The notes under the pieces are model-generated. The model saw only the letters and a program-made list of their open reading frames with translations. It did no database searches and was not told the origin of the DNA. The position numbers and the translations under genes are program-made. From NCBI GenBank assembly GCA_001780165.1, contig MFFQ01000066.1, forward strand, positions 39,082-103,081: a stretch of 64,000 nucleotides of DNA, read 5' to 3'. The first letter of the stretch is position 1; each line of letters begins with the position of its first letter. The DNA is from Candidatus Eisenbacteria bacterium RBG_16_71_46 (GTDB taxonomy: Bacteria > Eisenbacteria > RBG-16-71-46). This document shows, in pieces, positions 14,621-36,101 of this stretch.

Positions 14621-14676
14621 CCCCCGTGCGCGGACAGGGTTTTCAAGACGCCGTCCCCCGATGGAGGTCTCCTCGG

Positions 14677-17461: not shown

Positions 17462-17488
17462 CCCTCGAACGTCGTGACGTTGCTGCGA

Positions 17489-17514
17489 AGGCGGGGCCCA
17501 CGTGGGCCCCGCCT
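17489..17514. terminator. Perfect 26-bp palindrome AGGCGGGGCCCACGTGGGCCCCGCCT (RNA hairpin with 11-bp GC stem and ACGU loop) in the intercistronic gap. Possible attenuator, RNA-stability element or protein-binding site (CACGTG core).
   Basis: Read directly. No strong U-tract follows, so a classic terminator is uncertain. Confidence 0.4.
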
Positions 17515-17532
17515 CGTGTATGCTGGAGCCCC

Positions 17533-18456: not shown

Positions 18457-18535
18457 CACCGGCGGTGGCTGGCGCCCTCGCGGGAGTCGCGCCCGCGGCC
18501 CGGCGGGGCGCCGCGCGAGGCCGGCCCGACCGGCG

Positions 18536-19270
18536 TCAGCCTTCCGGCCAGGATTCCAGCCGGAAGCGTCCCTCCTCCAGCACGACGTAGGTGAACTGAT
18601 CGATCCAGTCGCCGAGCACGAAGAAGTCGCGGCCGTCTTCGTGCCGCTCGTAGGCGTGATGGAAGTGGCCGATCATCACCGCGTCGAAGCCCTCGGCGAA
18701 CCGCGGCAGCGCGACCTCTCGCCACATCCGCTCGCCCTCGAGCTGGCTCTCGGCTCGCGAATGGCGGGAGAGGTTGGAAAACCAGTGCGCCAGGGGAAGC
18801 CCCAGGTCCGGGTGGAGCAGGCCGTAGAGCCCGATCGCGAGCCGGCTGCGCACGACGCGCTTGAGCAGCTTGTAACCGACGTCTCCGCCCAGCAGCCCGT
18901 CGCCATGATGGAGCCAGATGCGTCGGCCCTGAAGCTCGACCGGGAGCGGCCCCTCGAGCGTGCGCAGCCCGATCTCCTCGGCGAGGAACCGACCGAGCCA
19001 GAAATCGTGGTTCCCGGTCATGCAGGTGATGTCGACGCCCGCCTCCCGAACGCGCCGGAGTGCCGCGAGCGTATGGAAATAGCGGCGTGGAATCGCGGTA
19101 CGGTACTCGTACCAGAAGTCGAACAGGTCGCCGACGACGTAGAGCGAGGCGGCGCGCCCGGGGAGCGAGGCCAGGAAGCGGTGGAGCCGCCGCACGCGGG
19201 CCGCCTCCTTCCCCGCGGGCTCCGCGCCCAGGTGGGCATCGGAGATGAAGAAGGCGACCGGCGTGAGCAT
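18536..19270 (-). CDS. lpxH: UDP-2,3-diacylglucosamine pyrophosphohydrolase LpxH (calcineurin-like phosphoesterase).
   Basis: Motifs FISDAHLG, VVGDLFDFW, GNHDFW and GHFHH are typical of LpxH. Internal ATG start (MLTPVAFFISD) chosen at 19270. Confidence 0.8.
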   Translation of the reverse strand: MLTPVAFFISDAHLGAEPAGKEAARVRRLHRFLASLPGRAASLYVVGDLFDFWYEYRTAIPRRYFHTLAALRRVREAGVDITCMTGNHDFWLGRFLAEEIGLRTLEGPLPVELQGRRIWLHHGDGLLGGDVGYKLLKRVVRSRLAIGLYGLLHPDLGLPLAHWFSNLSRHSRAESQLEGERMWREVALPRFAEGFDAVMIGHFHHAYERHEDGRDFFVLGDWIDQFTYVVLEEGRFRLESWPEG

Positions 19271-19477
19271 GGCGGCGCAGTCTAGCAACGCGTCCGCGGC
19301 CGCGCCACACAGCCGGCGGCGGAGCACGCCGGCAGGCCCGATCCCGCTTGACCGCGCGCCTCCCGCAGCCGACAGTCATCGTGGCATGTTCGAGCGCCGG
19401 TTCCGCGCGCCGTCCGGATTGCCGGCCACGATGATCGGTCGCGGAGCTTGCTGGCTTCCAATGAAGGGAGCAGGACG

Positions 19478-19672
19478 ATGGTCAGTCTCACGTGCAAACA
19501 GATGGGGATGAGCGGCTGTAACTTCAGCGCGACGGGCAAGGACGCCGAAGAGGTCAAGCAGAAGCTGCTGGCTCACGCCCGCAGCGCCCACGCGGATGTC
19601 CTCAAGGGAATGAAACCGGAGGACCTGAGCGGCCTGCAGGCGAGGCTGGATGCTCTGCTCGCCAGGCGCTAG
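19478..19672 (+). CDS. DUF1059 family small protein.
   Basis: MVSLTCKQMGMSGCNFSATGKD... matches DUF1059 small proteins. RBS GAAGGGAG. Confidence 0.6.
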   Translation: MVSLTCKQMGMSGCNFSATGKDAEEVKQKLLAHARSAHADVLKGMKPEDLSGLQARLDALLARR

Positions 19673-19826
19673 GTTCCGCCCGAGACGCCCGATTCTCGAG
19701 GGGCTCGGTCGGTTTCGGCTGCGAATTCTCCCGCGGTCACCGCTCGGCTGTCGCCGCCACTCGCCCGGCGCCCGGGCTTCTCGGACGGCACCCAGCCCGG
19801 GGCCGAGCCACCGAAATCGCGCCGGC

Positions 19827-21176
19827 GTGGCGCTGGCGCTGGCGCTCACGATACTGGCCCCGCCGCTCGCGCGCGGGGCCGCTCCACCCGCGGGGCCGCG
19901 CCCGGAAAACGTGGTGATCATGATTCCGGACGGCTGCGGGCCCGCCACCCTGGTCCTCGCCCGGCTCGCGCGAGGACGGCCGCTCTCGCTCGACAGCATC
20001 CTCGTGGGCGCCGTCGAGACCGGATCGTCCAGCTCGCGCATCACCGACTCCGCGGCGGGTGCCACCGCCTACGCTTCAGGCGTGAAGACCGCCAATCGCG
20101 TGGTGGGGATGGATCCGGCCGGGAACCCGGTCGAGACCCTGATGGAGGCCGCGGCGTCGCGCGGCATGGCGACGGGTTTCATCGTCAAGAGCAGGGTAAC
20201 GGACGCGACGCCCGCCGCGTTCGTCGCGCACGTGCGCCGACGCTCGCAGGAAGACGAGATCGCGGTGCAGGAACTCGCCCATCGCGTGAACCTCATCATG
20301 GGCGGCGGGCTGGACCGGTTCCTGCCCGAGCCCGCGGGAGGCAGGCGCGCCGACGGGCGGGATCTCGTGGCCGAGGCCCGCGGCCGCGGTGACCAGGTCG
20401 TGCTCGACCGCGCGGAGTTCGACGGCGACCTGCGCCTTCCCCTGCTCGCGCTGTTCGCGCCGGCCGAGCTGCCCTACGAGATCGACCGCGATCCGAAGCA
20501 GGCGCCGGGCCTGGTCGAGATGGTCCGCCGGGGGCTGCCCCTGCTCGCCCGCGAGCCGGGCGGGTTCCTGCTCGTGATCGAGGGCAGCCGTATCGACCAC
20601 GCCGCCCACGCCAACGATCCGGCGAGCCACGTCCGCGAAGCGCTCGAGTTCGACGACACCGTGCGCGAGGTCCTCGCCTTCGCCCGCCGCGACGGCCGCA
20701 CCCTGGTCGTGGGGGCGGCCGATCACGAGACCGGCGGCCTGTCGCTGGGGAGGCGCGTGGGCGACACCCCGCTCGAGGGCGTGTACCCCGAATCCCTGAT
20801 GGCGGTGCGCTGTTCGGCCGAGCGCATGGCCGATTCGATCCGCGCCGGTCACCCGGCGCGGGAGCTGGTGGAGCGTGAGACCGGCCTGCACCTCACCTTG
20901 GAGGAGGCGGGGATGCTCGACCGCGCGCTCCCGGGTCGCCGACTCGCGGAGGCCATTGGGGAGATCGAGAGCCGGCACGCGGCGCTCGGGTGGAGCACCT
21001 GGGGCCACACCGCCATCGACGTCGGGCTCTACGCCTTCGGTCCCGGCAGCGACCGTTTCCGCGGCGTGCTCGACAACACCGAGGTCGGGCGCCGCATCGC
21101 CGAATCGCTGGACCTGCAGGTCGGCGGGTCGCGGAGCCCGCGCGCCCCGGGGAGCGGCGGCCCCGCGACACCATGA
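19827..21176 (+). CDS. phoA: Alkaline phosphatase (PhoA family), secreted.
   Basis: VVIMIPDGCGPAT (catalytic-region metal site) and TDSAAGATAYASGVKT (active-site Ser block). DHAAHAND and DHETGG metal-ligand motifs. Start codon uncertain (GTG 19827 suggested). Confidence 0.75.
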   Translation: MALALALTILAPPLARGAAPPAGPRPENVVIMIPDGCGPATLVLARLARGRPLSLDSILVGAVETGSSSSRITDSAAGATAYASGVKTANRVVGMDPAGNPVETLMEAAASRGMATGFIVKSRVTDATPAAFVAHVRRRSQEDEIAVQELAHRVNLIMGGGLDRFLPEPAGGRRADGRDLVAEARGRGDQVVLDRAEFDGDLRLPLLALFAPAELPYEIDRDPKQAPGLVEMVRRGLPLLAREPGGFLLVIEGSRIDHAAHANDPASHVREALEFDDTVREVLAFARRDGRTLVVGAADHETGGLSLGRRVGDTPLEGVYPESLMAVRCSAERMADSIRAGHPARELVERETGLHLTLEEAGMLDRALPGRRLAEAIGEIESRHAALGWSTWGHTAIDVGLYAFGPGSDRFRGVLDNTEVGRRIAESLDLQVGGSRSPRAPGSGGPATP

Positions 21177-22654
21177 CCCGCGAACCCGCCGATCCCGGCG
21201 CCGGCGAGCCGCGCGCGGCTCCGCCGCTACCCGCTGCGCCCGACACCCATCAGAAGGCGGCGCAGGTCAATCTCGATGGGCAGAAGTACGGGACCTTCGC
21301 CGAGATCGGGGCCGGGCAGGAAGTCGCCCGCTGGTTCTTCCGCGTGGGCGGCGCCGCCGGCACGGTGGCCAAGACCATCTCGGCCTACGACATGCGCGTG
21401 AGCGACGCGATCTACGGTTCGTCCAAGCGCTACGTCAGCCGCGAGCGGCTGACGACGATGCTCAAGTACGAGTACGAGCTGCTGCTCGAGCGGCTCGACG
21501 CCGAGCGGGGCGCAGGCACCACCTTCTTTGTCTTCGCCGACACCGTCGCGGCGCGCAGCTACAGCCACCCGCTGGACTCCAACGGCTGGCTGGGCATTCG
21601 CTTCCAGGCCGCGCCCCGCGCGGCTCCGTCCGAGATCATCGCCCACGTGCTGATGCTCGACCGCGAGAACCTCCAGCAGCAGGAGGCGCTCGGGATCCTG
21701 GGCGTCAATCTGGTCCACGCCGCGCTCTTCCATCACGGGGATCCCCACAGCGTGATCGGGTCCCTGCTCGATGGGCTGAGCAGCAAGCGCGTCGCGGTCG
21801 ACATGATCAAGTTCTCGGGCCCGGCGTTCGAGGGGGTGGACAACCGGCTGATGAGCCTGCTGCTGGTGCAGCACGGCATGGCCGAAGCGGCGATGTTCAG
21901 CGCCGGCGGCGAGGTGGTTCAGGCCTCCGAGGTGCTCTACAAGCAGGCGGTGCTGGTGGAGCGCGGCCGCTTCCGCCCGGTGACGAGAGTGACGCACGAC
22001 ATGCTCTCGTACGCCCTCGCCCAGTTCCGCGACGGAGCGTCGGCCGGGGACCCGGCGCCGGTCGTGCTCATGGAGATGACCCTGCAGGATCTCGCTCACG
22101 GGGAGGACATCGACCATCAGGACTTTCTGGCGCGCGTGGACCTGCTCGGCGCGCTCGGCTGGATGGTGTTGATCAGCGGCTATTTCGAGTACTACAAGCT
22201 CGCCTCCTACCTCTCGCGCCACACGCGCGGACGCATCGGCATCGTGATGGGCGTGCCGAGCCTGCTCGACCTGCTGGACGAGCAGTACTACGCCGACCTC
22301 GACGGCGGGCTGCTCGAGTCGATCGGGCGCCTGTTCAAGAGCGACCTCAAGCTCTTCGTGTATCCCATGCGCAAGCCCGAGGACGGCTCGGTGATCACCG
22401 CCGAGACCGTGGAGGTGCCGATGAAGCTGCGCCACCTCTACGCGCACCTGCGGGAGCACGGCTACGTGGTGCCGATCCGCGACTCCAAGGAAGAGGACCT
22501 GCGGATCACGACCGACGAGGTGCTGGAGCTGATCCAGCTCGGGCGACCGGGCTGGGAGGACATGGTGCCGGCCGAGGTCGCCGGGGTGATCCGCGAGCGG
22601 AAGCTGTTCGGCTATCCCGGCGCGATCGAGGGTGGGCCCGCTCGCGGCGGTTGA
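21173..22654 (+). CDS. Conserved hypothetical cytoplasmic protein (493 aa), family not recognised.
   Basis: Long clean ORF with normal codon usage. ATGA overlap with the phoA stop. Confidence 0.5.
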   Translation: MTREPADPGAGEPRAAPPLPAAPDTHQKAAQVNLDGQKYGTFAEIGAGQEVARWFFRVGGAAGTVAKTISAYDMRVSDAIYGSSKRYVSRERLTTMLKYEYELLLERLDAERGAGTTFFVFADTVAARSYSHPLDSNGWLGIRFQAAPRAAPSEIIAHVLMLDRENLQQQEALGILGVNLVHAALFHHGDPHSVIGSLLDGLSSKRVAVDMIKFSGPAFEGVDNRLMSLLLVQHGMAEAAMFSAGGEVVQASEVLYKQAVLVERGRFRPVTRVTHDMLSYALAQFRDGASAGDPAPVVLMEMTLQDLAHGEDIDHQDFLARVDLLGALGWMVLISGYFEYYKLASYLSRHTRGRIGIVMGVPSLLDLLDEQYYADLDGGLLESIGRLFKSDLKLFVYPMRKPEDGSVITAETVEVPMKLRHLYAHLREHGYVVPIRDSKEEDLRITTDEVLELIQLGRPGWEDMVPAEVAGVIRERKLFGYPGAIEGGPARGG

Positions 22655-22796
22655 CAGCGCGGGGCGCGACTTCCTACAGTCGTCCGGCTGCTGGTTGGCG
22701 ATGCGGATTTGCGCGCGCCGACCCGCGCCGAACCCGACCGAGCCTCCAGCGGACACCTGCGGGGCGACTCCATCCACAGCGCGGGTAGCTCGACCC

Positions 22797-23795
22797 ATGA
22801 GCCAAGCTCTGAAGACCATTCGCATCGATCGATTTCACGTCAGGGTCGGGGCGGCGAGCGATCCGGGGCTGAAGCGCGCGCAGAACGAGGACAGCTTCGG
22901 CTGCTGGCTGCCCGAGGATCCCGAGGACGGCCGGCGCCGCGGACTCCTCCTGGCCGTGGCGGACGGCATGGGCGGCGCGCGCGGGGGCCAGGTCGCCAGC
23001 CGGCTGGCGATCGAGACCATCGGCTCGGCGTGGCGCCAGTCCGACGGCGCCAACCTCGCGGGCGAGCTGCGCGCGGCTCTGGCGGCGGCCAACCTCAGGA
23101 TCCACGGCGAGAGCGAGTCCCGTCCCGAGCTGGCGGGCATGGGCACCACCTGCACCGCCGCCGTCCTGAGGGACGGCGAGCTGGCCGTCGCCCATGTCGG
23201 TGACAGCCGCGCCTACCTCGTGCGCGGCGGCCGCATTCGCCAGCTCACCCACGACCACTCGCTGGTCGGGCAGCTCGTGCGGGAGCGCCAGATCACCGCC
23301 GCGCAGGCGCGCACCGACCCGCGCCGCAACGTGGTCACGCGCAGCGTCGGGGTCGGGCCCCAGGTCGAGATCGACGTCGAGGGCGCGGGCGAGAAGCTGG
23401 CGCCGGGGGACACCCTCATCCTCTGTACCGACGGCCTCCACGGTCTGGTGAGCGACGAAGAGCTGCGCGTCGGGGCGTCGGAGCCGGATCCGGATTCGGG
23501 GTGCCGCACGCTGATCTCGCTCGCGCGCGAGCGGGGCGGCCCCGACAACATCACGGTCGTCCTCGCGCGGGTCGAGTCCGCGGACGGCGCGGTGCGCGCG
23601 CGCCCGGCGCCTGCGACGGCGCGCCCCCGGCGCTCGCGGTCGAGCAAGGCGACGATGTTGCTCATCGTCGGCGCCTCGATCGTGCTGCTCCTCGCGCTGA
23701 CGGCGATCGGCCTGCTGGCCAGTCGATTGCTCCACCCCAAGCGAATGCTCGGGGCGGCTCCGGACGTCCATCACACAGGCGGAACATCGACATGA
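22797..23795 (+). CDS. PP2C-family Ser/Thr protein phosphatase with a C-terminal TM anchor (PppA/Stp1-like).
   Basis: Motifs FGCW...LLAVADGMGG, MGTT, GDSRAYLV and DGLHGLVSDEEL are canonical PP2C motifs. C-terminal hydrophobic helix LLIVGASIVLLLALTAIGLLA. Confidence 0.85.
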   Translation: MSQALKTIRIDRFHVRVGAASDPGLKRAQNEDSFGCWLPEDPEDGRRRGLLLAVADGMGGARGGQVASRLAIETIGSAWRQSDGANLAGELRAALAAANLRIHGESESRPELAGMGTTCTAAVLRDGELAVAHVGDSRAYLVRGGRIRQLTHDHSLVGQLVRERQITAAQARTDPRRNVVTRSVGVGPQVEIDVEGAGEKLAPGDTLILCTDGLHGLVSDEELRVGASEPDPDSGCRTLISLARERGGPDNITVVLARVESADGAVRARPAPATARPRRSRSSKATMLLIVGASIVLLLALTAIGLLASRLLHPKRMLGAAPDVHHTGGTST

Positions 23796-26041
23796 GCGAG
23801 CCCAAGGACTTCGGCAACTTCGAGATCCTCGAGCGCATCGGCCGCGGCGGAATGGCCTCGGTCTACCTGGCGGTCCAGAAGGCCCTGGATCGCAAGGTCG
23901 TGCTCAAGATCCTGTTCCCGCACTTGGCCGAGGACGCGAACCTGGTGGCGCGATTCGAGCGCGAGGCGCGCGCCGCGGCGCGGCTGCACCACGAGAACAT
24001 CATCCAGATCATCGATTGCGGGCGCCACGAGGACGTCTCGTACATCGCGATGGAGTTCGTGGACGGCAAGGACCTCAAGCAGTGGCTGGAGGCCACGGGC
24101 GCGCTGCCCCTGGAGATGGCGGTGCTGATCCTGCGCGAGATGTTCCGCGGGCTCGAGCACGCGCACCAGAACGGCATCGTGCATCGCGACATCAAGCCCG
24201 CGAACGTGATGCTCGCCACCGAGGGCACGGTCAAGCTGATGGACTTCGGGCTCGCGCGCCGCGACTCCGATTCCAAGGGCCTCACGGTGATGGGCTCGCT
24301 GCTCGGGACCCCGGCCTACATGTCGCCGGAGCAGGCGAAGAGCGAGCGGGTGGACGAGCGCAGCGACATCTTCTCCGCGGGCGTGGTGGCGTACGAGCTG
24401 CTCGGCGGCGGCCGCCCGTTCGACGGCAGCTCCTACGCCGGGGTGCTCAACGCGATCCTCTCGGTGCAGCCGCCGCGGCTGCGCGAGGTCAATCCCCTCG
24501 CGCCTCCGGAGCTCGAAGCCCTGGTCCAGAAGATGCTGCAGAAGGAGCCCGAGGCGCGCTACCAGAAGCTGTCGCAGGCCCGCGCCGATCTCGAGACCGT
24601 GATCGAGCGCATGGGTCTGCTGCGGGCCAAGGATCTGTTGCGCGAGTACGCCCAGCATCCGCGGGAGGTGACCGAGTCGCTGCGCGAGAAGCAGCTCCGC
24701 CTGGCGCTCGATCGCGGCCGCGTCCTGGCGGCGGCGGGACCGGACAAGATCGACGAGGCGCTGCAGGAATTCGTGAAGGCGCTCTACCTCGAGCCGCACA
24801 ACGCCGAGGCGATCGAGCAGCGGAAGAAGCTCGATCGTGCCCGCGCGGACGCCGAGGCGCGGGCCACTGCACAGGCCGAGGCCGCCGCGAAGGCGGAGGC
24901 CATGCGGGCGGCGGCCCCGCGCGCGCCCGCGCCGCCGGCACCCGCCCCGCCGGCCCCGGCGAGCGCCGCGGGCCGGGCGGTGGGCGCCCCGGAGCCCCGG
25001 GCCCAGGGACCCTCGGTGCGCCGTCCCGGGCCGTCCCGTCCCGCCGGCAAGCCGGACTCCGGCAGGTCGAAGGCCGATACGCTTCGCAAGCTCCTGTTCG
25101 CCTCGGTCGGCGCCCTGGCGCTGCTGGTGGTGGTCGCAGTGACCATTACCGTCGGTCTCCAATGCCAGAGCAAGAAGGCCGGGGAATCGGGCCGCGCCGC
25201 CGTGGAGACGCCGAGCCAGCCCGTGATCCCTCCGGTGGCGACCGAGCCCGTTCCGGAGCAGCAGGAGCCGATACCCGACATCTCCGCGATGCCGCTACCC
25301 AACGAGACCGCCGCCGGCCAGGTGGCGACGCCGACCCCCGCCGCCGGCCAGACGGGCGCCCCGGACACGCTGGCGTGGCTGGCGCTCGCCACCGACCCGC
25401 CCGGTGCGACGGTGCTGATCAACGGCCGGGCGCAGGGCAAGCTCACCAACTCGAGCTACGCCGTTCCTCCCGGGGCCCGGGTCGAAGTGCGAAAGACCGG
25501 CTACTCGCCGCGAACCCTCGAGGAGGCCGGCAAGCTCCGGCGGGGCGAGAAGCGATCGCTGCTCGTCAACCTCACGCCGGTGGACGAATTCATCGGGGCC
25601 CCGGGCCCGGGCGAGGGCGGCGTCGACATCCGCGTGCAGCCCGCGGCCCGCTTCTACATCGGCAGCACCCTGCTGCCGGGCAGCTACCAGACGCTCCAGC
25701 TGCACCTCAAGCCCGGCACCCACGTCATTCGCGCCGGGATCAGCCAGTCCGACTTCCACGACTGGACCGTCGAGGTGAGGGCGGGCGCGTCGGTGACCCT
25801 CGAGCACGTCTTCACGCCCACGGTTCCGGGTGCGATCAAGATCGACACCGGCCGGACCAAGGCTGCGGTCTACCTCAACGGGCAGGAGCAGCCGGCGAGG
25901 GCCCCGTGCACCATCGAGAACCTCAAGCCCGCCAGCTACACCCTCAAGGTCGTGGCCCAGGGCTTCCGCCCGGACTCGCAGGTCGTGACGGTGAAGGCGA
26001 AGGAAACCTCGGAAATCCGGTTCAGGCTCAAGAAGGAGTAA
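23792..26041 (+). CDS. Hanks-type Ser/Thr protein kinase with a TM segment and periplasmic PEGA domains (PpkA-like position).
   Basis: GRGGMASVY, VLK (Lys), HRDIKPANVML, DFG and APE motifs. ATGA overlap with the PP2C gene. TM segment LLFASVGALALLVVVAV. C-terminal repeats with PEGA-like signatures. Confidence 0.85.
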   Translation: MSEPKDFGNFEILERIGRGGMASVYLAVQKALDRKVVLKILFPHLAEDANLVARFEREARAAARLHHENIIQIIDCGRHEDVSYIAMEFVDGKDLKQWLEATGALPLEMAVLILREMFRGLEHAHQNGIVHRDIKPANVMLATEGTVKLMDFGLARRDSDSKGLTVMGSLLGTPAYMSPEQAKSERVDERSDIFSAGVVAYELLGGGRPFDGSSYAGVLNAILSVQPPRLREVNPLAPPELEALVQKMLQKEPEARYQKLSQARADLETVIERMGLLRAKDLLREYAQHPREVTESLREKQLRLALDRGRVLAAAGPDKIDEALQEFVKALYLEPHNAEAIEQRKKLDRARADAEARATAQAEAAAKAEAMRAAAPRAPAPPAPAPPAPASAAGRAVGAPEPRAQGPSVRRPGPSRPAGKPDSGRSKADTLRKLLFASVGALALLVVVAVTITVGLQCQSKKAGESGRAAVETPSQPVIPPVATEPVPEQQEPIPDISAMPLPNETAAGQVATPTPAAGQTGAPDTLAWLALATDPPGATVLINGRAQGKLTNSSYAVPPGARVEVRKTGYSPRTLEEAGKLRRGEKRSLLVNLTPVDEFIGAPGPGEGGVDIRVQPAARFYIGSTLLPGSYQTLQLHLKPGTHVIRAGISQSDFHDWTVEVRAGASVTLEHVFTPTVPGAIKIDTGRTKAAVYLNGQEQPARAPCTIENLKPASYTLKVVAQGFRPDSQVVTVKAKETSEIRFRLKKE

Positions 26042-26212
26042 GGGAGCAAGCTGCGCTCGGCGGCGCGGCGCTCCCGGGCGCCACGTGAGGCGCGCCGGGC
26101 GACCGCACGCCGTCCCAAGGCGCCACCGGGCGGCCCTCAGGGGCGGTGCGAGCCGGGTCCGCGGCGCGATCGCCTTGACGTCCGCACGTAAACCTCGCTA
26201 CTGTGATTGGTC

Positions 26213-26728
26213 ATGCTCCCTAACCAAGTGTGCCGAAGAACGTTCGCCCATCCCAAGGGCGCCGCGTGCGCGGCGCTGCTCCTGCTGCTCGGCGGATGCA
26301 GCTCGATGCCGTTTCTCTCGAACGAACCTCCGAGCCTCGAGTTCACGCTCGTCGCCGATCCGATGCTCAATTCGTGCGGCCAGGACCGGGGGCTCCCGCT
26401 GTTCTTCCACGTCGTGCAAGTGACGGACGCCTCGCTCCTCACCGGGACCACGCCGGAGCAGGTGTGGACTCGCGAGGACCAGATATTCGGTGACGCGCTG
26501 CTCAAGGACGCGCAGCAGAAGTCCTTCTATGAGGATTTTGTCGATCCGGGCAAGTCCAAGGTGATCGCGGTCGAGCGGAACCCGAAGGCGAAGTACGTGA
26601 TCTTTCTGGGCAACTACTGCCAGTCCCAGAACGCCTGCTGGTACTACACGTCGCCGCTGAAGAAGACGGGCGGCCAGAAGGTCAGCCTGGCTCTCGGGTC
26701 CTCCTGCGTCACCTCGATAAAGCGCTGA
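26213..26728 (+). CDS. tssJ: T6SS outer-membrane lipoprotein TssJ.
   Basis: Lipobox LLLLGGCSS. TssJ/SciN-like size and beta-sandwich pattern. Start ambiguous (TTG 26207, ATG 26213 or GTG 26228). Confidence 0.7.
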   Translation: MLPNQVCRRTFAHPKGAACAALLLLLGGCSSMPFLSNEPPSLEFTLVADPMLNSCGQDRGLPLFFHVVQVTDASLLTGTTPEQVWTREDQIFGDALLKDAQQKSFYEDFVDPGKSKVIAVERNPKAKYVIFLGNYCQSQNACWYYTSPLKKTGGQKVSLALGSSCVTSIKR

Positions 26729-26747
26729 TCTTCCACAGGACTCTCTC

Positions 26748-28103
26748 ATGTCGCGGCATCAGCCGGTGGTCTGGCACGAGGGGATGCTGCTGGCCCCGCA
26801 GCACCTCCAGCAGTGGGATCGCTACCTCCATCATCTCGTCGACGATCGCTTCCGGGCCCTGCGCGCCTTCGAGTGGGGCTTCACCGAGCTGAAGCTCGAT
26901 CGCGAATCGCTGCGCAACGGCCGTATCGCCCTGCTCGCGGCAAGCGGCGTTCTGCCCGATGGGACCCCCTTCGCCATTCCGGATGGGGATGCGCCGCCGT
27001 CCGCCCGCGCGATCGAGGGCCATTTCGACGCGAAGCAGGACGTGCTTGCGGTGCATCTCGGACTGCCCGCCGCGCGGCCGGGACGACCCCAGCTCGGCGA
27101 CGGGGCCGCATCGGGACTGCCGCGGCCTCGCTTCTCTCCGCACGACGAGGACCTCGAGGACGCGAACTCCGGCGGGGATCCTCGCCGCGTGACCGTGGCG
27201 CGGCGCAACTTCGCGATCCTGTTCCCGGACGATGCGCTGGGCGATCACGACACGCTCCAGGTGGCGGAGGTCGTTCGGGACCCCGGCTCCGGCTACGTCC
27301 TGCGCGAGACCTTCGTGCCTCCCTGTCTGTCGGTCGCGGCCTCCGAGTGGCTGATGCAGATCCTGCGCGGACTGCACAACAAGCTCAACTCGAAGAGCAC
27401 GCGGCTCACGAACGAGCGCCCCAGTCCCGGCGGGGTCGTCAACCTGGCCGGCATGGAGACCGCCGACCTGCTGGGCCTGCAGCTCGTCAACGCCGCGATC
27501 CCGGCCCTGGCGCACGTCATCGAGCACGGCCGCGCCCATCCCGAGGACGTCTACCTGCAGCTCGTGTCGCTCGCCGCAGCGCTGTGCGCGTTCGCCCCGC
27601 GCCCCCGCGCCACCGAGCTGCCGCGCTACGACCACGGCGCGCCCTTCTCGACCTTCGGGCCGCTCAACGAGACTTTGACGCAGCTGATCGAGCTGGTCGG
27701 CGGCCAGGTGAAGGTGACCGTGATCCCCCTCGAGAAGGACGAGCGTGGCCGCCACATCGGCCGGCTCCAGGATCCCCGTCTGCTCGAGCCGAGTGCCAGC
27801 TTCTTCCTCGGCGTGAGGGCCGAGGTCGAGGAGGGGACGCTCATCCGGGACTTCCCGGCCAAGAGCAAGCTCGCCTCGCTCAATCGACTCGATGCCCTGA
27901 TCGCGGCCCTGGCCCCGGGAATCGGGCTTCAGTACCTGCGGGTGACCCCCGCGGGGCTGCCGGTCAAGTCGAACATGGTCTACTTCCAGCTCGATCCCGC
28001 CAGCAGCGAGTGGGCAGACGTGCGCAAGGCCCAGAACCTCGCCCTCTTCATCGCCGCCGACTATCCCAGCCTGAGCATGGAACTCCTGGGGAAGCGAGCC
28101 TAG
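26748..28103 (+). CDS. tssK: T6SS baseplate protein TssK.
   Basis: N-terminus VVWHEGMLLAPQHLQQWDRY matches the TssK consensus (VWSEGMFLRPQHFQQ). Confidence 0.85.
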   Translation: MSRHQPVVWHEGMLLAPQHLQQWDRYLHHLVDDRFRALRAFEWGFTELKLDRESLRNGRIALLAASGVLPDGTPFAIPDGDAPPSARAIEGHFDAKQDVLAVHLGLPAARPGRPQLGDGAASGLPRPRFSPHDEDLEDANSGGDPRRVTVARRNFAILFPDDALGDHDTLQVAEVVRDPGSGYVLRETFVPPCLSVAASEWLMQILRGLHNKLNSKSTRLTNERPSPGGVVNLAGMETADLLGLQLVNAAIPALAHVIEHGRAHPEDVYLQLVSLAAALCAFAPRPRATELPRYDHGAPFSTFGPLNETLTQLIELVGGQVKVTVIPLEKDERGRHIGRLQDPRLLEPSASFFLGVRAEVEEGTLIRDFPAKSKLASLNRLDALIAALAPGIGLQYLRVTPAGLPVKSNMVYFQLDPASSEWADVRKAQNLALFIAADYPSLSMELLGKRA

Positions 28104-28104
28104 C

Positions 28105-28902
28105 GTGAGCGGCTCGCGCCCCCGTTCGCGTGCGGCGCCCCGCGCGGGAAAGTCGCCCGGCCCGCCGGGGGACCGACCGGGAGCCGACGAAGCCTGGAGC
28201 CGTGACGAGGAGGGCTCCGGCCGGGCCGCCGCGACCGGCCCCCGCCTGGTCGACCTCTGCGGCGACTGGCTCAGCCTGGTCGCGGCGCTCCGCGGCGCCT
28301 CCGGCTCCATCGACGCGGCGGCGCTGCGCACCCGGGCGCTCGAGCTGCGCGATCGGTTCGCCCTGGAGGCGCGCGCGGCGGGTTTCGCCGCGGCCGACAT
28401 CGAGGCCGCCACGTTCGCGATCGTCGCCTTCCTCGACGAGACGGTGCTCTCCTCCGGTGGCACGGCGCGCGACACGTGGATGGCGCGACCGCTGCAGCTC
28501 GAGCTGTTCGGCATCTACACCGCCGGCCAGGATTTCTTCGACCGACTCGACCGCATGCGGCGCGAACGCGAAGCGCGGATCGAGGCCCTCGAGGTGTGCT
28601 TCGCGTGCCTGGCGCTCGGCTTCGCCGGGAAGTACCGGCTCGAGTCGCTCGAGACGCTCGCGAATCTCACCGGTGAGGTCGAGCGCGACGTCGCCGCGGT
28701 GCGCGGCATCGCGCCGGGTAGCCTGTCCCCCCGCGCGGTGCGCCGCGAGGAACTGGCGATGGTGGTCGCCGAGAGCGTCCCCTCGTGGCTCGCGGTCGCG
28801 GCCTTCGTGGTCGTGGTCGGACTGACCTGGCTCGTCATCTTCCTGCTCTCCCGGCACGACGCGGCGAGCGCCGCCCGCGCGATCGAGCGGCTCGCCGGCT
28901 GA
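28105..28902 (+). CDS. tssL: T6SS membrane protein TssL (DotU/IcmH family) with a ~60-aa Arg/Pro/Gly-rich N-terminal extension.
   Basis: DotU core (LVDLCGDWLSLVAAL...FAIVAFLDETVL...EVCFACLALGFAGKY) and C-terminal TM helix. Confidence 0.8.
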   Translation: MSGSRPRSRAAPRAGKSPGPPGDRPGADEAWSRDEEGSGRAAATGPRLVDLCGDWLSLVAALRGASGSIDAAALRTRALELRDRFALEARAAGFAAADIEAATFAIVAFLDETVLSSGGTARDTWMARPLQLELFGIYTAGQDFFDRLDRMRREREARIEALEVCFACLALGFAGKYRLESLETLANLTGEVERDVAAVRGIAPGSLSPRAVRREELAMVVAESVPSWLAVAAFVVVVGLTWLVIFLLSRHDAASAARAIERLAG

Positions 28903-28905
28903 GCG

Positions 28906-31900
28906 ATGGATCTCCTGCGCCGCTTCTTCCGCCCCCGGGTCGCGATCGGCGCCGTCGTCGTCGCCGTGGCCGCGGGGACCGCCGCCCTGTGGAGCGTGAT
29001 CGGCTGGGTGGCCCTGCTCGTCTTCATGATCCTCCTCATGGTCGGGCTGGTCGTGGTCATCGTCATGCTGTGGCGGCGCTACCAGGCCGAGCGCGCGACG
29101 GAGGAGATCGAGCGCACCATCACCCGCCAGGCCGACCAGGACATCGAGCGCTCGGTCGCCGCCAAGGTGGACGAGGCCAAGGACATGAAGGCCCAGCTGC
29201 TCGAGGCCATCCAGGATCTCAGGCAGCGGGTGGGGCGTGGCGGGTTCTCGACCATTCCCTGGTACCTGGTGATGGGGCCGACGGATGCCGGCAAGAGCAC
29301 CCTCGTCCTCCGTTCCGAGCTGAGGTTTGCGGGCGACGACGAGACACGGGGCGGGCGCCCGGTGGCCGGAATCGGCGGAACCCGGCGATTCGACTGGTGG
29401 CTGAGCCAGGACGCCGTGGTGCTCGACATGGCGGGCCGGGCCCTCGGGACCTCCGCCCAGTTCGAGGACAACGAGGACTGGATCGCCTTCCTGCGCACGC
29501 TCGCCCGGCAGCGACGCGGCAAGCCGATCAACGGCGTGCTGCTGGTGGTGGGCGTCGAGCAGCTCGCCGGCCACCCCACGACCGAGCTCGACAAGCTCGC
29601 GGGCCGGGTCCGCGAGCGCCTGCAGGAGCTGGTGCACCACCTCGGCGTGGTGTTCCCGGTCTACGCCGTCGTCACGCAGATGGACCGCCTCGTCGGTTTC
29701 TCGGAGTTCTTCGCCGACCTCGGCGATCCCGAGCGCGGCCAGATCTGGGGCGCGACGCTCAAGTACCGGCAGCGCAGCGCCGAGGAGGTGGAGCAGGAAT
29801 TCGACCGGGAGTTCCAGGCGCTCGCCGGAGTGCTGGGCGAGCGGCGGCTCCGGCGGGTGGCGGCGCTCTCGGGGGACGCCGCCCGCGCCCGCGCGTTCGG
29901 ATTCCCCCTGCAGCTCGAGCGCCTGCGCGACCCGATGATCCGCTTCGTCGGCGGAGTCTTCCAGCCGGATCCGAGCGGTGACTCACCGGTGTTCCGTGGC
30001 GTCTACTTCACGAGCGCGGCCCAGGAAGGGGCACCGATCGATCTGGTCGCGGCGCCGGCGCTGGCGGCGGTCGGCGGCGCACCCGCGGGCGGCGCCAAGC
30101 CGGCGACGTCCGGCACCTTCTTCGTGCGCGACCTGTTCTCGCGCGTGCTCTCCGGCGAGGCGGGCTTGGCCGGGCTGGCGCGCGCCGAGAAGGCCCGCCA
30201 GCGGCTGCGCCGGGTCATCATCGCCGGCAGCCTGGCCGCCAGCTTCGTGCTGGTGGCGGTGCTGCTCTCGTCGTTCTCGTGCGCCAACCGGCGGGTGATC
30301 GACAGGACGCGGGACGCGGCACGCAGGGTCGCGCAGACGGTGAAGGTCCAAAGCCCGCTGGACGCCAACCTCGAGTCCCTCGACGGCCTCAGGGCCCGGC
30401 TGGTCGTGCTGGATTCGCTGGCCGAGGGAAGGCCGACGTGGCGGAAGATGGGGGCCTACTCGGGCGATGCGGTGATCGACCCGGCGCTCAAGCTCTACAC
30501 CCAGGCCGCGCTCGCCGCCGTCATCCGGCCGGCGGCGGACCGCATGGTCGACAGCCTCAGCGCGCAGACCGCCACGGGCGCCGGCGCGTTCATCGACTAC
30601 TTCGACCTCTTCCGGGCGGTGCGGCTCCTGCACAATGCGGACAAGCTGGTCGCGGACGACGCCCCCACCCTGGCGCGAGTCATGCGCCGGATGCTCGCCT
30701 CGCAGATCGCCACCGGCCCCGACGAGGATCGCCGGCGCAAGCGGAGCCTGCTCGACGCGCAGATCGAATTCCTCGCGACGCATCCCTATTGGCTCAGCAG
30801 CCTCGGGCCCAAGGCGCTGGGTCCCGAGAACCTGGAGCTGGTGGCCCGGGCCTCCACGCGGGTGCGGGACACCTGGGACCCTTCCCAGTTCTACCGCCGC
30901 ATGATCCGCGAGATCGAGCCCACGATCCCGGAGGCTTCGCTCCCCGGCCTGATGGGCAAGGCGACGCTGGTGACCGACGCGGTGGTGGTGGGCGGGCCCT
31001 TCACGCGCAGCGGGTGGAACGACCGCGTGCGGCCGGAGCTCGCGCGGCGGGGCGAGCGGATGCGCAACGACTGGATCGTGCGCGAGGTCTTCGCCGGGGA
31101 CGGCACGCCGGCCGGGCTCGAAGCGGAGATGGCGACGCGCTACGCTCGCGACTACACCGCGCACTGGGTGGCGCTGCTCGACGGGATCGAGATCGACATG
31201 CGGTCCGATCTCAACGGCGCCGTGGAGATGATGGCCAAGCTCAAGGAGCCCGACTCCCCGATCGTGCTCGGGCTCAAGGCGGTGGCCGAGCAGACCACGC
31301 TCGGGGTGGATCCCGCGCTCGCCCTCGGCCAGGTGGACAAGGACTTCGCGTTGCTCCACCAGTTCGTGAGCAGCGGGGGGGCCGGCTCCCAGGGCTCGCT
31401 GTTCCAGCGGGTCGCGCAACGCTTCGGCGCCGGGGGCTCGGCGGGCGGCGCATCCGGCGCGGGGCAGTCGGCGAGCGCCCTCTACCTCCAGGAGCTGGGC
31501 AAGGTCCAGGAGCAGGTCACCGCCGCGGCCCAGTCGGGCAGCCCGGTCCTCAAGCAGGCCATCCTCTGCGTCGGCGCCGGCACCGCGGAGAGCGCGGTGT
31601 GCAGGAGTCTCCAGTGGGTGGACTTCGTGGCCGGCGATTTCGGCGGTGCCAAGGGGACCGAGCCGGTCGCCCGGGTGTTGCGGCTGCCGATGAAGAAATG
31701 CCAGGAGTCGGTGCGCGGCAGCCCCACGAAGGTGGGGGGCTTCGGCCCGCCGATCCCGCCCACCCCGGAGATGGCCGCCGCGTGGTCGGGCCTCGTCGGC
31801 CAGTTCCAGAGCACGCTCGCCGGCAGGTACCCGCTCTCGCCGGGCCGGAGCGCGGAGGCGACGCTGCAGGACTTCGCCGGCTTCTTCAAGCCCGGTGGCG

Positions 31901-32469
31901 CCTTCTGGAGCTTCCACCAGCAGTATCTCAAGGACTACGTCAACGAGGACGGCACGCCCACTCCGGCGGCGCAGGCCGGGGTGCCGTTCACCGGAGGCCT
32001 TCCGGGCGTGGTGCGCCGGGCCTACGAGATCCGCGAGGCGCTCTTCTCGGTCAAACCCGACACCCCGTGGCTCGAGTTCACCATCAGCACCGGAACGCCG
32101 AGCGTCGAAGGTCCTCCGATCAATCCCCGCAAGGTGTTCCTCGATCTGGGGGGGCAGTCGGCGGTCTACTTCATGGGGCCCAAGCGGCCGATGCACCTGG
32201 AATGGCCGGGACCCGATCCCGCGGTGGGCGCTTCCCTGCGCGCGGAGACGGATCAGGCGCAGCCGCAGGCGCTCCGGGCCCCCGGGCCGTGGGGGCTCTT
32301 CCGGCTGCTCGACATGGGTGCGCTCAGCGGGGGAAGCGAGCCCCAGGTCACCTGGCAGCTCATCGCCGGCCAGAGCCGGATCCGCATCTCCTACGACATC
32401 CGCCCCGGATCGGCCCGGCACCCCTTCCGCCGGGGTTCGTTGAGCTTTAGCCTGCCCGGCAGCCTCTGA
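28906..32469 (+). CDS. tssM: T6SS membrane protein TssM (IcmF family).
   Basis: 1187 aa. N-terminal TM helices. Walker A GPTDAGKST. IcmF-related C-terminal domain. Confidence 0.9.
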   Translation: MDLLRRFFRPRVAIGAVVVAVAAGTAALWSVIGWVALLVFMILLMVGLVVVIVMLWRRYQAERATEEIERTITRQADQDIERSVAAKVDEAKDMKAQLLEAIQDLRQRVGRGGFSTIPWYLVMGPTDAGKSTLVLRSELRFAGDDETRGGRPVAGIGGTRRFDWWLSQDAVVLDMAGRALGTSAQFEDNEDWIAFLRTLARQRRGKPINGVLLVVGVEQLAGHPTTELDKLAGRVRERLQELVHHLGVVFPVYAVVTQMDRLVGFSEFFADLGDPERGQIWGATLKYRQRSAEEVEQEFDREFQALAGVLGERRLRRVAALSGDAARARAFGFPLQLERLRDPMIRFVGGVFQPDPSGDSPVFRGVYFTSAAQEGAPIDLVAAPALAAVGGAPAGGAKPATSGTFFVRDLFSRVLSGEAGLAGLARAEKARQRLRRVIIAGSLAASFVLVAVLLSSFSCANRRVIDRTRDAARRVAQTVKVQSPLDANLESLDGLRARLVVLDSLAEGRPTWRKMGAYSGDAVIDPALKLYTQAALAAVIRPAADRMVDSLSAQTATGAGAFIDYFDLFRAVRLLHNADKLVADDAPTLARVMRRMLASQIATGPDEDRRRKRSLLDAQIEFLATHPYWLSSLGPKALGPENLELVARASTRVRDTWDPSQFYRRMIREIEPTIPEASLPGLMGKATLVTDAVVVGGPFTRSGWNDRVRPELARRGERMRNDWIVREVFAGDGTPAGLEAEMATRYARDYTAHWVALLDGIEIDMRSDLNGAVEMMAKLKEPDSPIVLGLKAVAEQTTLGVDPALALGQVDKDFALLHQFVSSGGAGSQGSLFQRVAQRFGAGGSAGGASGAGQSASALYLQELGKVQEQVTAAAQSGSPVLKQAILCVGAGTAESAVCRSLQWVDFVAGDFGGAKGTEPVARVLRLPMKKCQESVRGSPTKVGGFGPPIPPTPEMAAAWSGLVGQFQSTLAGRYPLSPGRSAEATLQDFAGFFKPGGAFWSFHQQYLKDYVNEDGTPTPAAQAGVPFTGGLPGVVRRAYEIREALFSVKPDTPWLEFTISTGTPSVEGPPINPRKVFLDLGGQSAVYFMGPKRPMHLEWPGPDPAVGASLRAETDQAQPQALRAPGPWGLFRLLDMGALSGGSEPQVTWQLIAGQSRIRISYDIRPGSARHPFRRGSLSFSLPGSL

Positions 32470-33846: not shown

Positions 33847-33948
33847 CGCCCGGGAAGGCGCATGGCTGATTCTCGCACGTGTTCCCGCGATCCACGCCGC
33901 TCCCCCCGAGCCGCCCGCCGATCGCATACCGCCGTCAGGAGGTGCCGC

Positions 33949-35971: not shown

Positions 35972-36101
35972 TCCCAGGTACGGCGAATCTCACAGGCACG
36001 GAAGGGTAGGAGCCCCGTCGCGGGGCTTCCGCCCGTTCCGGCCTTCCACAGGCCAGTGCCCACCGCATGACCGCGGCCGGGGCAGAAGAAAGGAGCCGCC
36101 C

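Follow-up and report, generated by a model that had tools for sequence, protein, structure and literature searches.

A PEGA-domain kinase and a PP2C phosphatase beside tssJKLM in an uncultured Candidatus Eisenbacteria member: probable FHA-less remnant of a lineage-specific module

The PP2C phosphatase and PEGA-domain kinase encoded next to the T6SS genes tssJKLM of Candidatus Eisenbacteria bacterium RBG_16_71_46 probably represent (rough probability, 0.55) a reduced derivative of an Eisenbacteria-specific kinase/phosphatase/FHA module, lacking both the FHA genes and the threonine motif of TssL. The branch leading from TssL phosphothreonine to an FHA reader would then be defunct, and the pair would mainly serve general envelope signaling. 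The locus in the window, i.e., the complete 64,000-nucleotide stretch of DNA analyzed here, is no evidence for a dedicated FHA-independent switch on TssL.

The kinase/phosphatase pair and its T6SS cluster

As the sequence-only reading of this DNA had described, a PP2C gene and a PEGA kinase gene (K1) lie directly 5' of tssJ, 171 bp before tssJKLM and on the same strand. The features of the locus are as follows.

22651-22680, + strand: sigma-70-like promoter candidate TTGACA-N18-TACAGT, 117 nt 5' of the PP2C start; consensus match only
22797-23795, + strand: PP2C Ser/Thr phosphatase, 332 aa, PstP/Stp1-like (Pfam PP2C_2, 1.5e-17; PP2C, 3.3e-13)
23792-26041, + strand: Hanks-type Ser/Thr kinase K1, 749 aa (Pkinase, 6.6e-54; PEGA, 3.5e-17)
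26042-26212, + strand: kinase-tssJ gap, 171 bp, with no terminator-like site predicted
26175-26204, + strand: promoter look-alike TTGACG-N18-TACTGT, separated from the tssJ ATG by 8 nt and below the -10 threshold of the scan
26213-26728, + strand: TssJ outer-membrane lipoprotein, 171 aa (Pfam T6SS-SciN, 3.7e-13; TIGR03352, 50.4 bits versus a cut-off of 31.6)
26748-28103, + strand: TssK baseplate protein, 451 aa (Pfam T6SS_VasE, 1.8e-115)
28105-28902, + strand: TssL (DotU), short form, 265 aa, TM at aa 229-247 (DotU, 1.1e-45, from aa 48; TIGR03349, 150.4 bits versus a cut-off of 89.95, from aa 47)
28105-28245, + strand: N-terminal extension of TssL, 47 aa, Gly/Arg/Ala/Pro-rich; DotU homology begins at aa 47-48
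28906-32469, + strand: TssM, 1187 aa (IcmF-related_N, 5.1e-72; IcmF-related, 4.3e-30; IcmF_C, 1.2e-17)
32824-50410, + strand: remaining T6SS genes by Pfam matches, i.e., tssA, tssB, tssC, hcp, tagJ/impE, tssE, tssF, tssG (TssG at 39975-40976, 7.1e-106), clpV, a lipase_3 gene and vgrG

The phosphatase passes the cut-off of the NCBIfam Stp1/IreP equivalog (235.8 bits versus 230), its DGMGG, GDSR, TDGL, and DNIT catalytic motifs are all readable in the translation, and a predicted TM at aa 288 to 306 forms its C-terminal membrane anchor. Its stop codon overlaps the kinase start by 4 nt (ATGA). A promoter scan of positions 22400 to 29000 returned one promoter-like site (22651-22680), compared with 0.2 expected from shuffles, and the tssJ start agrees with the gene call on a 99.56%-identical contig. 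The T6SS cluster, which extends to ~50.4 kb and encloses two minus-strand genes (45134-48281), is complete; neither tagF nor tagH is present in it according to Pfam.

K1 consists of a kinase domain (aa 10 to 258), a helical juxtamembrane region up to ~aa 380, an Ala/Pro-rich linker, a single predicted TM (aa 434 to 452), and an ectodomain (aa ~528 to 748) with three PEGA-like beta-sandwich repeats, in which the Pfam PEGA match comprises two stretches with the best at aa 681 to 748. The periplasmic region is thus built from PEGA rather than vWA domains, as had been proposed. The HRDIKPAN, DFG, and SPE motifs are intact, and among NCBIfam models K1 scores highest against the PknB/Stk1 kinase domain (342.5 bits). 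Judged from its sequence, K1 is a member of an Eisenbacteria-specific PEGA-kinase clade; the phylogeny leaves the origin of the window's copy at 46% bootstrap. An assignment as PpkA orthologue was rejected, K1 falling outside the PpkA-like clade.

Synteny and FHA genes in related loci

Since the window also holds a second Hanks kinase (57148-58848), the adjacency of PP2C/K1 and a T6SS in one genome could be due to chance. Six contexts, namely the window and five others (L006, L012, L093, L099, and L100), however, have a homologous PEGA-kinase module 0.2 to 6.5 kb 5' of tssJKLM and in the same orientation. That the arrangement recurs in related loci speaks against chance adjacency, and the T6SS link looks real in view of a linkage that spans TssK identities of 38 to 53%. 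From the earlier proposal of a PppA/PpkA-like gating of the T6SS, a plausible tie of the pair to the T6SS is therefore retained on grounds of synteny, but not the relationship of the kinase to PpkA.

The full module has the order small FHA protein, FHA-FHA-TM-SLT lytic transglycosylase, ectodomain-TM-FHA protein, PP2C, and PEGA kinase. Upstream of tssJKLM, L099 and L100 carry three FHA genes, PP2C, K1, and two or three further genes; L012 carries the FHA genes, PP2C, K1, and a TPR/OMP gene; L006 carries PP2C, K1, three genes, and a second kinase (K2); and L093, whose TssK is 38% identical to that of the window, carries three FHA genes, K1, two genes, K2, and one gene. In L005, K2, seen as the C terminus of a PEGA kinase, directly abuts tssJ. 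In L093, K2 arose by local duplication of K1 (81% bootstrap), which indicates that PEGA kinases were recruited beside tssJ more than once, and extra paralogues at this boundary arose at least two times. FHA genes are found in all T6SS-linked relatives with upstream DNA or a contig match. Searches returned at least 158 FHA-FHA-SLT proteins, and at least 19 contigs, paired by their identical lengths, apparently bear both such a protein and a K1-type kinase; together with the three FHA genes preceding the kinase in relatives, these shared contigs indicate that the module is normally FHA coupled.

A T6SS-independent role of the module is indicated by L003/L094 and L098, where the full module occurs with no T6SS within 10 kb, and by the Stp1/IreP-type score of the PP2C. 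It is very unlikely, though, that the pair is nothing but a housekeeping PknB/PstP-like envelope regulator whose proximity to the T6SS reflects inherited synteny with no functional link. Such a view would fit the equivalog match of the phosphatase, the affinity of the kinase domain to PknB/Stk1, the T6SS-free modules, the 12 unrelated genes that part the module from tssJ in L092/L007, the lytic transglycosylase domain of one FHA partner, which suggests a cell-wall role, and the ~80 K1-type kinases returned by searches, a number far exceeding that of the related T6SS loci found. It does not account for a linkage that persists down to 38% TssK identity, for L099, where the module travels with tssJKLM and no other T6SS gene occurs within the 2 kb seen after them, for the repeated origin of kinase paralogues at the tssJ boundary, or for the covariation of a TssL threonine motif with the FHA genes (see below).

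The absence of an FHA partner, already noticed from the sequence, holds for every frame of the window and for ~8 to 10 kb past its end, the latter represented by the 99.56%-identical contig. Pfam detected no FHA domain in all called ORFs and the six-frame pieces of gaps near the T6SS, and an FHA-signature regular expression had no match in any of the six frames of the window. A profile built iteratively with 30 FHA domains of related loci (--max, E<=50), which detects FHA domains in 21 other loci, reached a best score of only 4.2 bits over 845 six-frame pieces of the window and L096; the latter overlaps the last ~13 kb of the window and extends ~8 kb past its end, ~10 kb beyond the amidase gene. 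The 99.56%-identical contig has a LiaF-like gene after Pyr_redox, and then MOSC-HisKA-RR. PP2C-K1 sits between Pyr_redox and MOSC in L002 and L092, and the FHA genes, PP2C, and K1 immediately follow Pyr_redox in L094, L098, and L100. The three FHA genes are hence absent from the window and from their ancestral neighborhood on the same contig.

A mere relocation of the FHA genes to another part of the genome is conceivable, and a conventional but split pathway, in which readers encoded at another site act in trans with PP2C/K1 on the T6SS, is a real if clearly lesser possibility. Most relatives have an FHA-coupled module, and L002 and L092 retain PP2C-K1 but lack adjacent FHA genes, so that gene separation does occur in this sublineage. 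Numerous FHA proteins are typical of kinase-rich bacteria, and the search in this MAG covered one contig, i.e., the window plus the extension from its counterpart. Against a split pathway stands the lack of the TssL threonine expected as the reader's target and, as a weak argument, that among 120 listed of the at least 158 FHA-FHA-SLT matches, named for cluster representatives only and with 38 further matches outside the 120, none was assigned to RBG_16_71_46 or to either of the contigs of 78,335 bp and 106,004 bp.

The threonine motif of the TssL extension

The N-terminal extension of TssL is real, although it comprises 47 rather than the previously estimated ~60 residues (G8 R8 A8 P7 S6 T1). 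It must be translated, because GTG at position 28105 is the sole ATG, GTG, or TTG after the preceding stop codon and before the DotU core. A motif, G-x-L-E-T-[IVLM]-[VI], is conserved in the TssL extensions of L005, L006, L012, L093, L099, and L100, outside of which the extension sequence is unconserved; FHA genes lie directly 5' of the kinase in L012, L093, L099, and L100, for L006 a shared contig implies their presence, and in L005 the sequence does not reach further upstream. TssL of the FHA-less window and of L007 lacks the motif, and the extension itself is absent in L013 and in Planctomycetota loci. The threonine motif thus appears to covary with the FHA genes (6 versus 3 loci), but the loci are phylogenetically related and do not represent six independent events. 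The window retains a degenerate copy, G26-A-D-E-A30-W-S32 (nucleotides 28180-28200), whose Ala30 aligns to the conserved Thr column and argues against the extension serving as phosphoacceptor in the way that had been proposed. This copy could be misaligned in a short, low-complexity region, and the remaining six Ser and one Thr (T44) of the extension could be phosphorylated.

A dedicated FHA-independent switch, in which the PEGA kinase phosphorylates TssL or another membrane-complex or baseplate protein and alone gates the T6SS, with PP2C reversing the modification, is unlikely. It would agree with the intact catalytic motifs of both enzymes, their position 171 bp before tssJ on the same strand without a predicted terminator, the lack of FHA domains in the window and the contig extension, and the full-length retention of an extension with six Ser and one Thr despite the loss of the motif, and the lineage-wide linkage of kinase and tssJKLM makes some regulatory tie plausible. 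Yet all characterized T6SS phosphorylation pathways, including those acting on TssL, use an FHA reader (PMC3953482; reviews), all T6SS-linked relatives with upstream DNA or a contig match have FHA genes, the sole conserved candidate acceptor threonine is lost, and the rest of the extension is not conserved.

We therefore favor the reduced derivative. In its full form, the module, usually placed directly 5' of the membrane-complex genes tssJKLM, would most likely sense an envelope or cell-surface cue through the PEGA ectodomain of the kinase, which would phosphorylate the motif threonine of TssL; FHA proteins would read the phosphothreonine and license T6SS assembly, and PP2C would reset the switch. 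Synteny, a short motif, and the analogy to known systems are our grounds for inferring TssL phosphorylation and FHA binding. In the window genome, where the extension persists with Ala for Thr and both enzymes keep their catalytic motifs, the pair was probably retained mainly for general envelope signaling, as in relatives with no nearby T6SS, and any residual T6SS control would involve another target or an FHA protein encoded elsewhere. The PP2C-K1-tssJ juxtaposition without a terminator could equally mean tighter T6SS coupling instead of decay.

Comparison with known systems

The full module may be an analogue, built from nonorthologous parts, of the Agrobacterium PpkA/TssL-pThr14/Fha switch. 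As in Agrobacterium tumefaciens, an N-terminal extension precedes the DotU core of TssL, which begins at aa 35 in that species (PMC3953482). The TssL peptide bound by Fha in Agrobacterium is DLPpTVVEI (PMC3953482), and TssL of L099 carries DALETVVIE at the equivalent place; the Thr followed by hydrophobic residues in the Eisenbacteria relatives (LETVV, LETIV) resembles this peptide. The suggestion of a TagH-independent mechanism on the Agrobacterium precedent fails, because Fha acts there as the reader of pThr14 in TssL (Lin et al. 2014, PMC3953482) and the pathway is not FHA independent, and because the module of the relatives is normally FHA coupled. In contrast to Agrobacterium, the window has no nearby FHA gene, and its TssL carries Ala in place of the Thr and is of the short form, which lacks a peptidoglycan-binding domain. 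Unlike Agrobacterium Fha, the FHA proteins encoded in the relatives do not resemble TagH (small FHA, FHA-FHA-TM-SLT, and ectodomain-TM-FHA).

With the H1-T6SS of Pseudomonas aeruginosa (PpkA/TagE, PppA/TagG, Fha1/TagH, and TagQRST), the window shares a membrane-bound Hanks kinase, encoded together with a PP2C near tssJKLM within a T6SS cluster, as well as tagJ/impE, an accessory gene of the H1-T6SS (review). It differs in a kinase outside the PpkA-like clade with a PEGA instead of a vWA ectodomain, in the position of the pair 5' of tssJ, in the canonical tagH slot, and not after tssM with tagF, and in the lack of Fha/TagH, TagF, and TagQRST. Canonical relatives with ~35% TssK identity (L041, L055, L065, L066, L071, L079, L085, L086, and L090) are organized like H1: an FHA gene immediately precedes tssJ-K-L-M, and the PP2C and kinase genes follow tssM.

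PknB/PstP with FhaA/FhaB form an actinobacterial cell-wall and division cluster linked to rodA/pbpA, Stk1/Stp1 are corresponding pairs in Firmicutes, and the kinase ectodomain consists of PASTA domains. Unlike these, the window kinase has a PEGA ectodomain and stays below the PknB/Stk1 cut-off of 450, the genes linked to the module are tssJKLM instead of rodA/pbpA, and the host is an uncultured Candidatus Eisenbacteria member. As in PknB/PstP and Stk1/Stp1, the gene of a membrane-anchored PP2C precedes and overlaps the kinase gene, and, as with FhaA/FhaB, the FHA genes of the relatives lie immediately upstream, one of them fused to a cell-wall enzyme.

A PP2C-PEGA kinase pair at the border of the T6SS cluster

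The T6SS gene set of the window is complete, and tssJ is preceded on the same strand by the genes of a PP2C phosphatase and a Hanks kinase with a PEGA ectodomain (K1), an arrangement that the sequence-only reading had described and that is confirmed by the coordinates. The gene map near the pair was derived from frame-specific GC3 and Pfam matches and is unambiguous there (G+C content of the window, ~70%).

Features of the kinase-T6SS region and the T6SS effector region (+, plus strand)
22651-22680, sigma-70-like site TTGACA-N18-TACAGT, 5' of the PP2C gene
22797-23795 (+), PP2C phosphatase, 332 aa, C-terminal membrane anchor at aa 288-306
23792-26041, Hanks kinase K1, 749 aa, ATG overlapping the PP2C stop codon
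26175-26204 (+), promoter look-alike TTGACG-N18-TACTGT, ending 8 nt before the tssJ ATG, below the scanner threshold
26213-26728 (+), tssJ, preceded by a 171-bp gap after K1 and followed by tssK, tssL and tssM
28105-28902, tssL, between tssK and tssM
50418-51608, HEAT/TIGR02270 gene, effector region
52153-52641, PAAR-like gene, effector region
52791-53804, DUF2169 gene, effector region
53864-54922, gene with a weak ketoacyl-synthase-like match, effector region

Downstream of tssM follow tssA, tssB, tssC, hcp, tagJ/impE, tssE, tssF, tssG, clpV, a lipase_3 gene, vgrG, the PAAR-like gene and the DUF2169 gene; TagF was not found in the window. The kinase domain of K1 (aa 10-258) is followed by a helical juxtamembrane region, an Ala/Pro-rich linker, a single transmembrane segment (aa 434-452) and an ectodomain of ~300 aa with three PEGA-like repeats, two of which are detected by Pfam (best, aa 681-748), so that the earlier PEGA assignment is borne out. 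In the translations, the catalytic motifs of the kinase (HRDIKPAN, DFG, SPE) and of the phosphatase (DGMGG, GDSR, TDGL, DNIT) are intact.

The region 5' of PP2C contains an alkaline phosphatase gene and then the gene of a 493-aa protein of unknown function (21173-22654, +), which overlaps the alkaline phosphatase stop codon and lies in the slot of an FHA gene in relatives; it has no Pfam or NCBIfam match and no FHA similarity. A second Hanks kinase, whose C-terminal half is of the TPR type (57148-58848, +), is located just downstream of the effector region and shares only ~36% identity with the PEGA kinase. A further 543-aa ORF with a good coding signal (46650-48281, minus strand), divergent from vgrG, looks like a sheath protein that has been fused and truncated, with weak similarity to VipA/TssB at aa 66-158 and a VipB/TssC N-terminal domain at aa 236-530. 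It lacks the C-terminal VipB_2 domain and scores 218 for TIGR03355, below the cut-off of 271.5. Next on its strand is a TPR and SAM-methyltransferase gene (45134-46720, minus strand).

With respect to transcription, no terminator was predicted in the kinase-tssJ interval. The promoter look-alike in this interval is closely similar to the site 5' of PP2C and, if used, would give a nearly leaderless tssJ mRNA. A scan for a T6SS promoter of the sigma-54 type served by the upstream bEBP (TGGCAC-N5-TTGCW) gave 17 matches versus 15.8 expected, none of them near PP2C, tssJ or the T6SS. Two sigma-54 -24/-12 matches with one mismatch each (14092-14107 and 14607-14622, +) lie 3' of a TPR-GAF-sigma-54-activator gene (10759-13875) and 5' of an operon including a DUF4384 protein; over the whole window, such matches are no more frequent than expected by chance.

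The pair occupies the slot normally held by tagH. PP2C passes the Stp1/IreP equivalog NF033484 (235.8 bits, cut-off 230), and the best NCBIfam match of K1 is PknB/Stk1 (NF033483, 342.5 bits, below the cut-off of 450), which covers only aa 10-274. In a neighbor-joining tree of the kinase domains of all related loci examined, which is of low resolution, the PEGA kinases of Eisenbacteria cluster in a clade of their own, and the PpkA-like kinases, which in canonical T6SS loci are encoded together with PP2C downstream of tssM, fall outside it (38-42% identity). K1 is thus ruled out as a PpkA orthologue by both the tree and the best family match, and the pair is therefore not PpkA/PppA by descent. 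The kinase region of K1 shares 58-64% identity with other members of the Eisenbacterial module, which have the PP2C-kinase overlap and the PEGA ectodomain in common with it. The identity of the window K1 to all other K1s is 58-62%, and it groups with those of the related loci L002 and L092 at only 46% bootstrap, so the tree does not tell whether its closest relatives are the FHA-linked K1s or those without FHA.

Synteny of the kinase module in related loci

Related loci were gathered with two anchors, TssK and kinase homologues. The full module consists of a small FHA protein, a protein that combines two FHA domains with a transmembrane segment and a lytic transglycosylase (SLT) domain (FHA-FHA-SLT), an ectodomain-TM-FHA protein, PP2C and K1; some relatives have a second PEGA-kinase paralogue (K2).

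Layout of related loci, with the FHA-FHA-SLT gene and the motif in the TssL extension where present
L012: (FHA-FHA-SLT)-(x-TM-FHA)-PP2C-K1-TPR/OMP-tssJKLM; TssL motif G-A-L-E-T-L-V
L099: FHA-(FHA-FHA-SLT)-(x-TM-FHA)-PP2C-K1-TPR/OMP-x-tssJKLM; FHA-FHA-SLT 5856-7694; TssL motif D-A-L-E-T-V-V
L100: Pyr_redox-three FHA genes-PP2C-K1-three genes-tssJKLM; FHA-FHA-SLT 5906-7624; TssL motif G-V-L-E-T-M-I
L093: three FHA genes-K1-two genes-K2-TPR lipoprotein-tssJKLM, TssK only 38% identical to that of the window; FHA-FHA-SLT 6786-8600; TssL motif D-V-T-E-T-I-V
L006: PP2C-K1-three genes-K2-tssJKLM, FHA-FHA-SLT protein P0262 apparently on the same contig, judged from the identical length of 67,678 bp; TssL motif G-I-L-E-T-I-V
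L005: contig begins within K2, which adjoins tssJ; TssL motif G-I-L-E-T-I-V
L092/L007: Pyr_redox-PP2C-K1, 12 genes (15.6 kb), prfA-tssJKLM; without FHA
L002: beginning as in L092
L003/L094, L098: full FHA-PP2C-K1 module, no T6SS within 10 kb; FHA-FHA-SLT 5889-7571 (L003/L094)
L013, Planctomycetota loci, Polyangiaceae locus: no kinase upstream

In the window and in five relatives (L006, L012, L093, L099 and L100), tssJKLM lies downstream of the kinase module on the same strand. In L093, K2 is derived from a local duplication of K1 (81% bootstrap), and the K2 of L005 and L006 is an older paralogue. Because this linkage recurs across a deep T6SS divergence and the kinase has repeatedly been duplicated at the tssJ border, the synteny argues for a functional tie, and chance adjacency in a kinase-rich genome is ruled out as the sole explanation. 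Since the module also occurs without a T6SS, its function is not confined to T6SS regulation.

The cluster itself is a mosaic. A comparison of 26213-32469 (tssJKLM) with 32824-39978 revealed that TssA to TssF are 65-91% identical to those of L007, whereas TssJKLM reach only 31-46% and are nearer to other loci (52-56%). In L099, tssJKLM and the kinase module are followed by a DUF3857/transglutaminase gene and not by tssA. Based on these identities and this layout, the membrane-complex block seems to move together with the kinase module, apart from the sheath/baseplate block.

The FHA-FHA-SLT gene is located directly 5' of the PP2C-kinase pair in relatives, and its product, judged from its domains, could be a phosphorylation-gated peptidoglycan hydrolase. 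At least 158 homologues exist, and at least 19 contigs, paired by their identical lengths, appear to carry both this protein and a K1-type kinase; gene content thus indicates that the kinase module is normally coupled to FHA proteins.

Absence of the FHA genes and of the TssL threonine

The window lacks this coupling. PF00498 and PF16697 matched neither the called ORFs nor the six-frame pieces (X-joined and stop-free) of the unassigned gaps closest to the T6SS; gaps far upstream were covered by a regular expression for the FHA signature, which found no match in six frames of the 64-kb window, and by an FHA profile. The profile was seeded from the FHA domains of one related locus, iterated to 30 domains including TagH-type ones, and detects FHA in 21 related loci; run unfiltered at E ≤ 50, it gave no score above 4.2 bits in the window and the contig extension. 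No match to three FHA proteins of relatives was obtained by tblastn against the window, no FHA-FHA-SLT homologue was found there, and a comparison with the accessory genes found in relatives (TPR/OMP proteins, K2, FHA proteins) matched only the kinase itself. The region past the window end was read on a collinear 78-kb contig of 99.56% identity, part of which is locus L096. Since all scans were negative, the absence of FHA proteins, proposed beforehand for the locus, holds for the window and ~8 kb beyond its end. Among the 120 matches listed for the FHA-FHA-SLT protein, none was attributed to RBG_16_71_46.

This contig also sheds light on the origin of the arrangement. Past the window end it encodes Amidase_3, 5'-nucleotidase, TPR, DUF2064, Pyr_redox, a LiaF-like gene, MOSC, HisKA and a sigma-54 response regulator. 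In L002 and L092, PP2C-K1 is found between Pyr_redox and MOSC, and L094, L098 and L100 carry the FHA genes, PP2C and K1 after Pyr_redox, with genes 3' of K1 that differ from the MOSC block. In L096, the sole gene in the corresponding slot between Pyr_redox and MOSC-HisKA-response regulator (17348-21218) encodes a 129-aa LiaF-like membrane protein. An empty ancestral slot together with a PP2C-K1 pair that adjoins tssJ points to a rearrangement that brought the pair next to the T6SS, and the gene order indicates that it kept kinase, phosphatase and T6SS together and dropped the FHA genes.

The second difference concerns TssL, which consists of a DotU cytoplasmic domain (PF09850, 1.1e-45; TIGR03349, 150.4 bits, cut-off 89.95) and one C-terminal transmembrane segment (aa 229-247), as is typical of the family. 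DotU homology starts at aa 47-48. The N-terminal extension of TssL proposed in the sequence-only reading is real, because the only start codon available 5' of the DotU core is GTG 28105, which follows the tssK stop codon (28101-28103) at a distance of one base: no other ATG, GTG or TTG lies between them, which rules out a start-codon artefact. Its length is 47 aa and not ~60 aa, with a composition of G8 R8 A8 P7 S6 T1. The extensions of relatives are ATG-initiated and comprise 36-72 aa.

When the TssL N-termini of the window and the related loci were aligned, all loci whose T6SS is tied to an FHA-bearing module, plus L005, had an extension of 37-72 aa with a conserved motif. This motif, G-x-[LT]-E-T-[IVLM]-[VI], is not present in the window extension, which reads G-A-D-E-A-W-S in the alignment (A3), with alanine in the threonine column. 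The 36-aa extension of L007, which has no FHA protein and a distant kinase, lacks the motif, and TssL of L013 and the Planctomycetota loci has no extension at all. Across the aligned loci, motif and FHA genes come and go together, and the window has neither.

A probable reduced switch and its relation to known systems

In Agrobacterium, PpkA-dependent phosphorylation of TssL at Thr14, within the ~34 aa preceding the DotU core, creates the sequence DLPpTVVEI, which is bound by Fha (PMC3953482). The resemblance of the Eisenbacterial TssL motif to this site suggests, by analogy, that the full module follows the same principle: K1 would phosphorylate the TssL threonine, the FHA proteins would bind the phosphorylated residue, one of them possibly coupling its recognition to local peptidoglycan cleavage via the SLT domain, and PP2C would reset the switch.

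The most economical reading of the window is a reduced derivative that has lost the TssL-pThr/FHA branch. The pair has probably been kept for a T6SS-independent role in envelope signalling, and any control of the T6SS would proceed via a different target or an FHA protein from another part of the genome. The sequence-only reading had proposed an FHA-independent switch instead. After the loss of the FHA readers and the TssL threonine motif, the PEGA kinase could have been rewired to phosphorylate a serine of the TssL extension, TssM or TssK, with PP2C as the off-switch. The recurrent synteny makes a regulatory link between kinase and T6SS plausible, but a switch that is FHA-independent and directed at TssL is disfavoured by the normal FHA coupling of the module and the exchange of threonine for alanine, and we regard the rewired switch as improbable. 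If true, it would be the first T6SS Ser/Thr phosphorylation pathway that needs no FHA protein. With respect to the reduced derivative, the window represents a natural variant without FHA genes and TssL threonine, i.e., a comparison for asking whether the TssL-pThr/FHA step is dispensable and what else the kinase can target. For this uncultured organism, practical consequences are limited at present.

To our knowledge, post-translational gating of a T6SS through phosphorylation of Ser/Thr has been described only in Proteobacteria, and all described cases known to us run through an FHA protein. The literature searched, including reviews, contained no FHA-less T6SS phosphorylation pathway and no link between PEGA-domain kinases or Eisenbacteria and T6SS regulation. 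The arrangement in the window is a new form of this already known kind of regulation, the minimal set of which comprises tagE, tagG and tagH (2026 review, PMC13584744). The window shares with this threonine phosphorylation pathway a membrane Hanks kinase adjoining the cluster and a PP2C within it, but it lacks the FHA protein (TagH/Fha), and its kinase is not orthologous to PpkA. Canonical loci have the FHA gene just before tssJ and PP2C with a PpkA-like kinase after tssM, which is the layout of P. aeruginosa H1. Compared with the Stk1/Stp1 (PknB/PstP) pair, the window PP2C belongs to the Stp1/IreP equivalog, but K1 has a PEGA ectodomain and no PASTA repeats. In comparison with the full Eisenbacterial module, the window has retained the PP2C-PEGA kinase pair, tssJKLM and the TssL extension but neither the three FHA genes nor the TssL motif. 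Overall, the comparison suggests that Candidatus Eisenbacteria assembled a comparable switch from parts that are not orthologous: the kinase carries a PEGA ectodomain, the PP2C is PstP-like, the three FHA proteins are unusual and include a lytic transglycosylase fusion, and TssL of relatives has a threonine motif resembling the Agrobacterium site.
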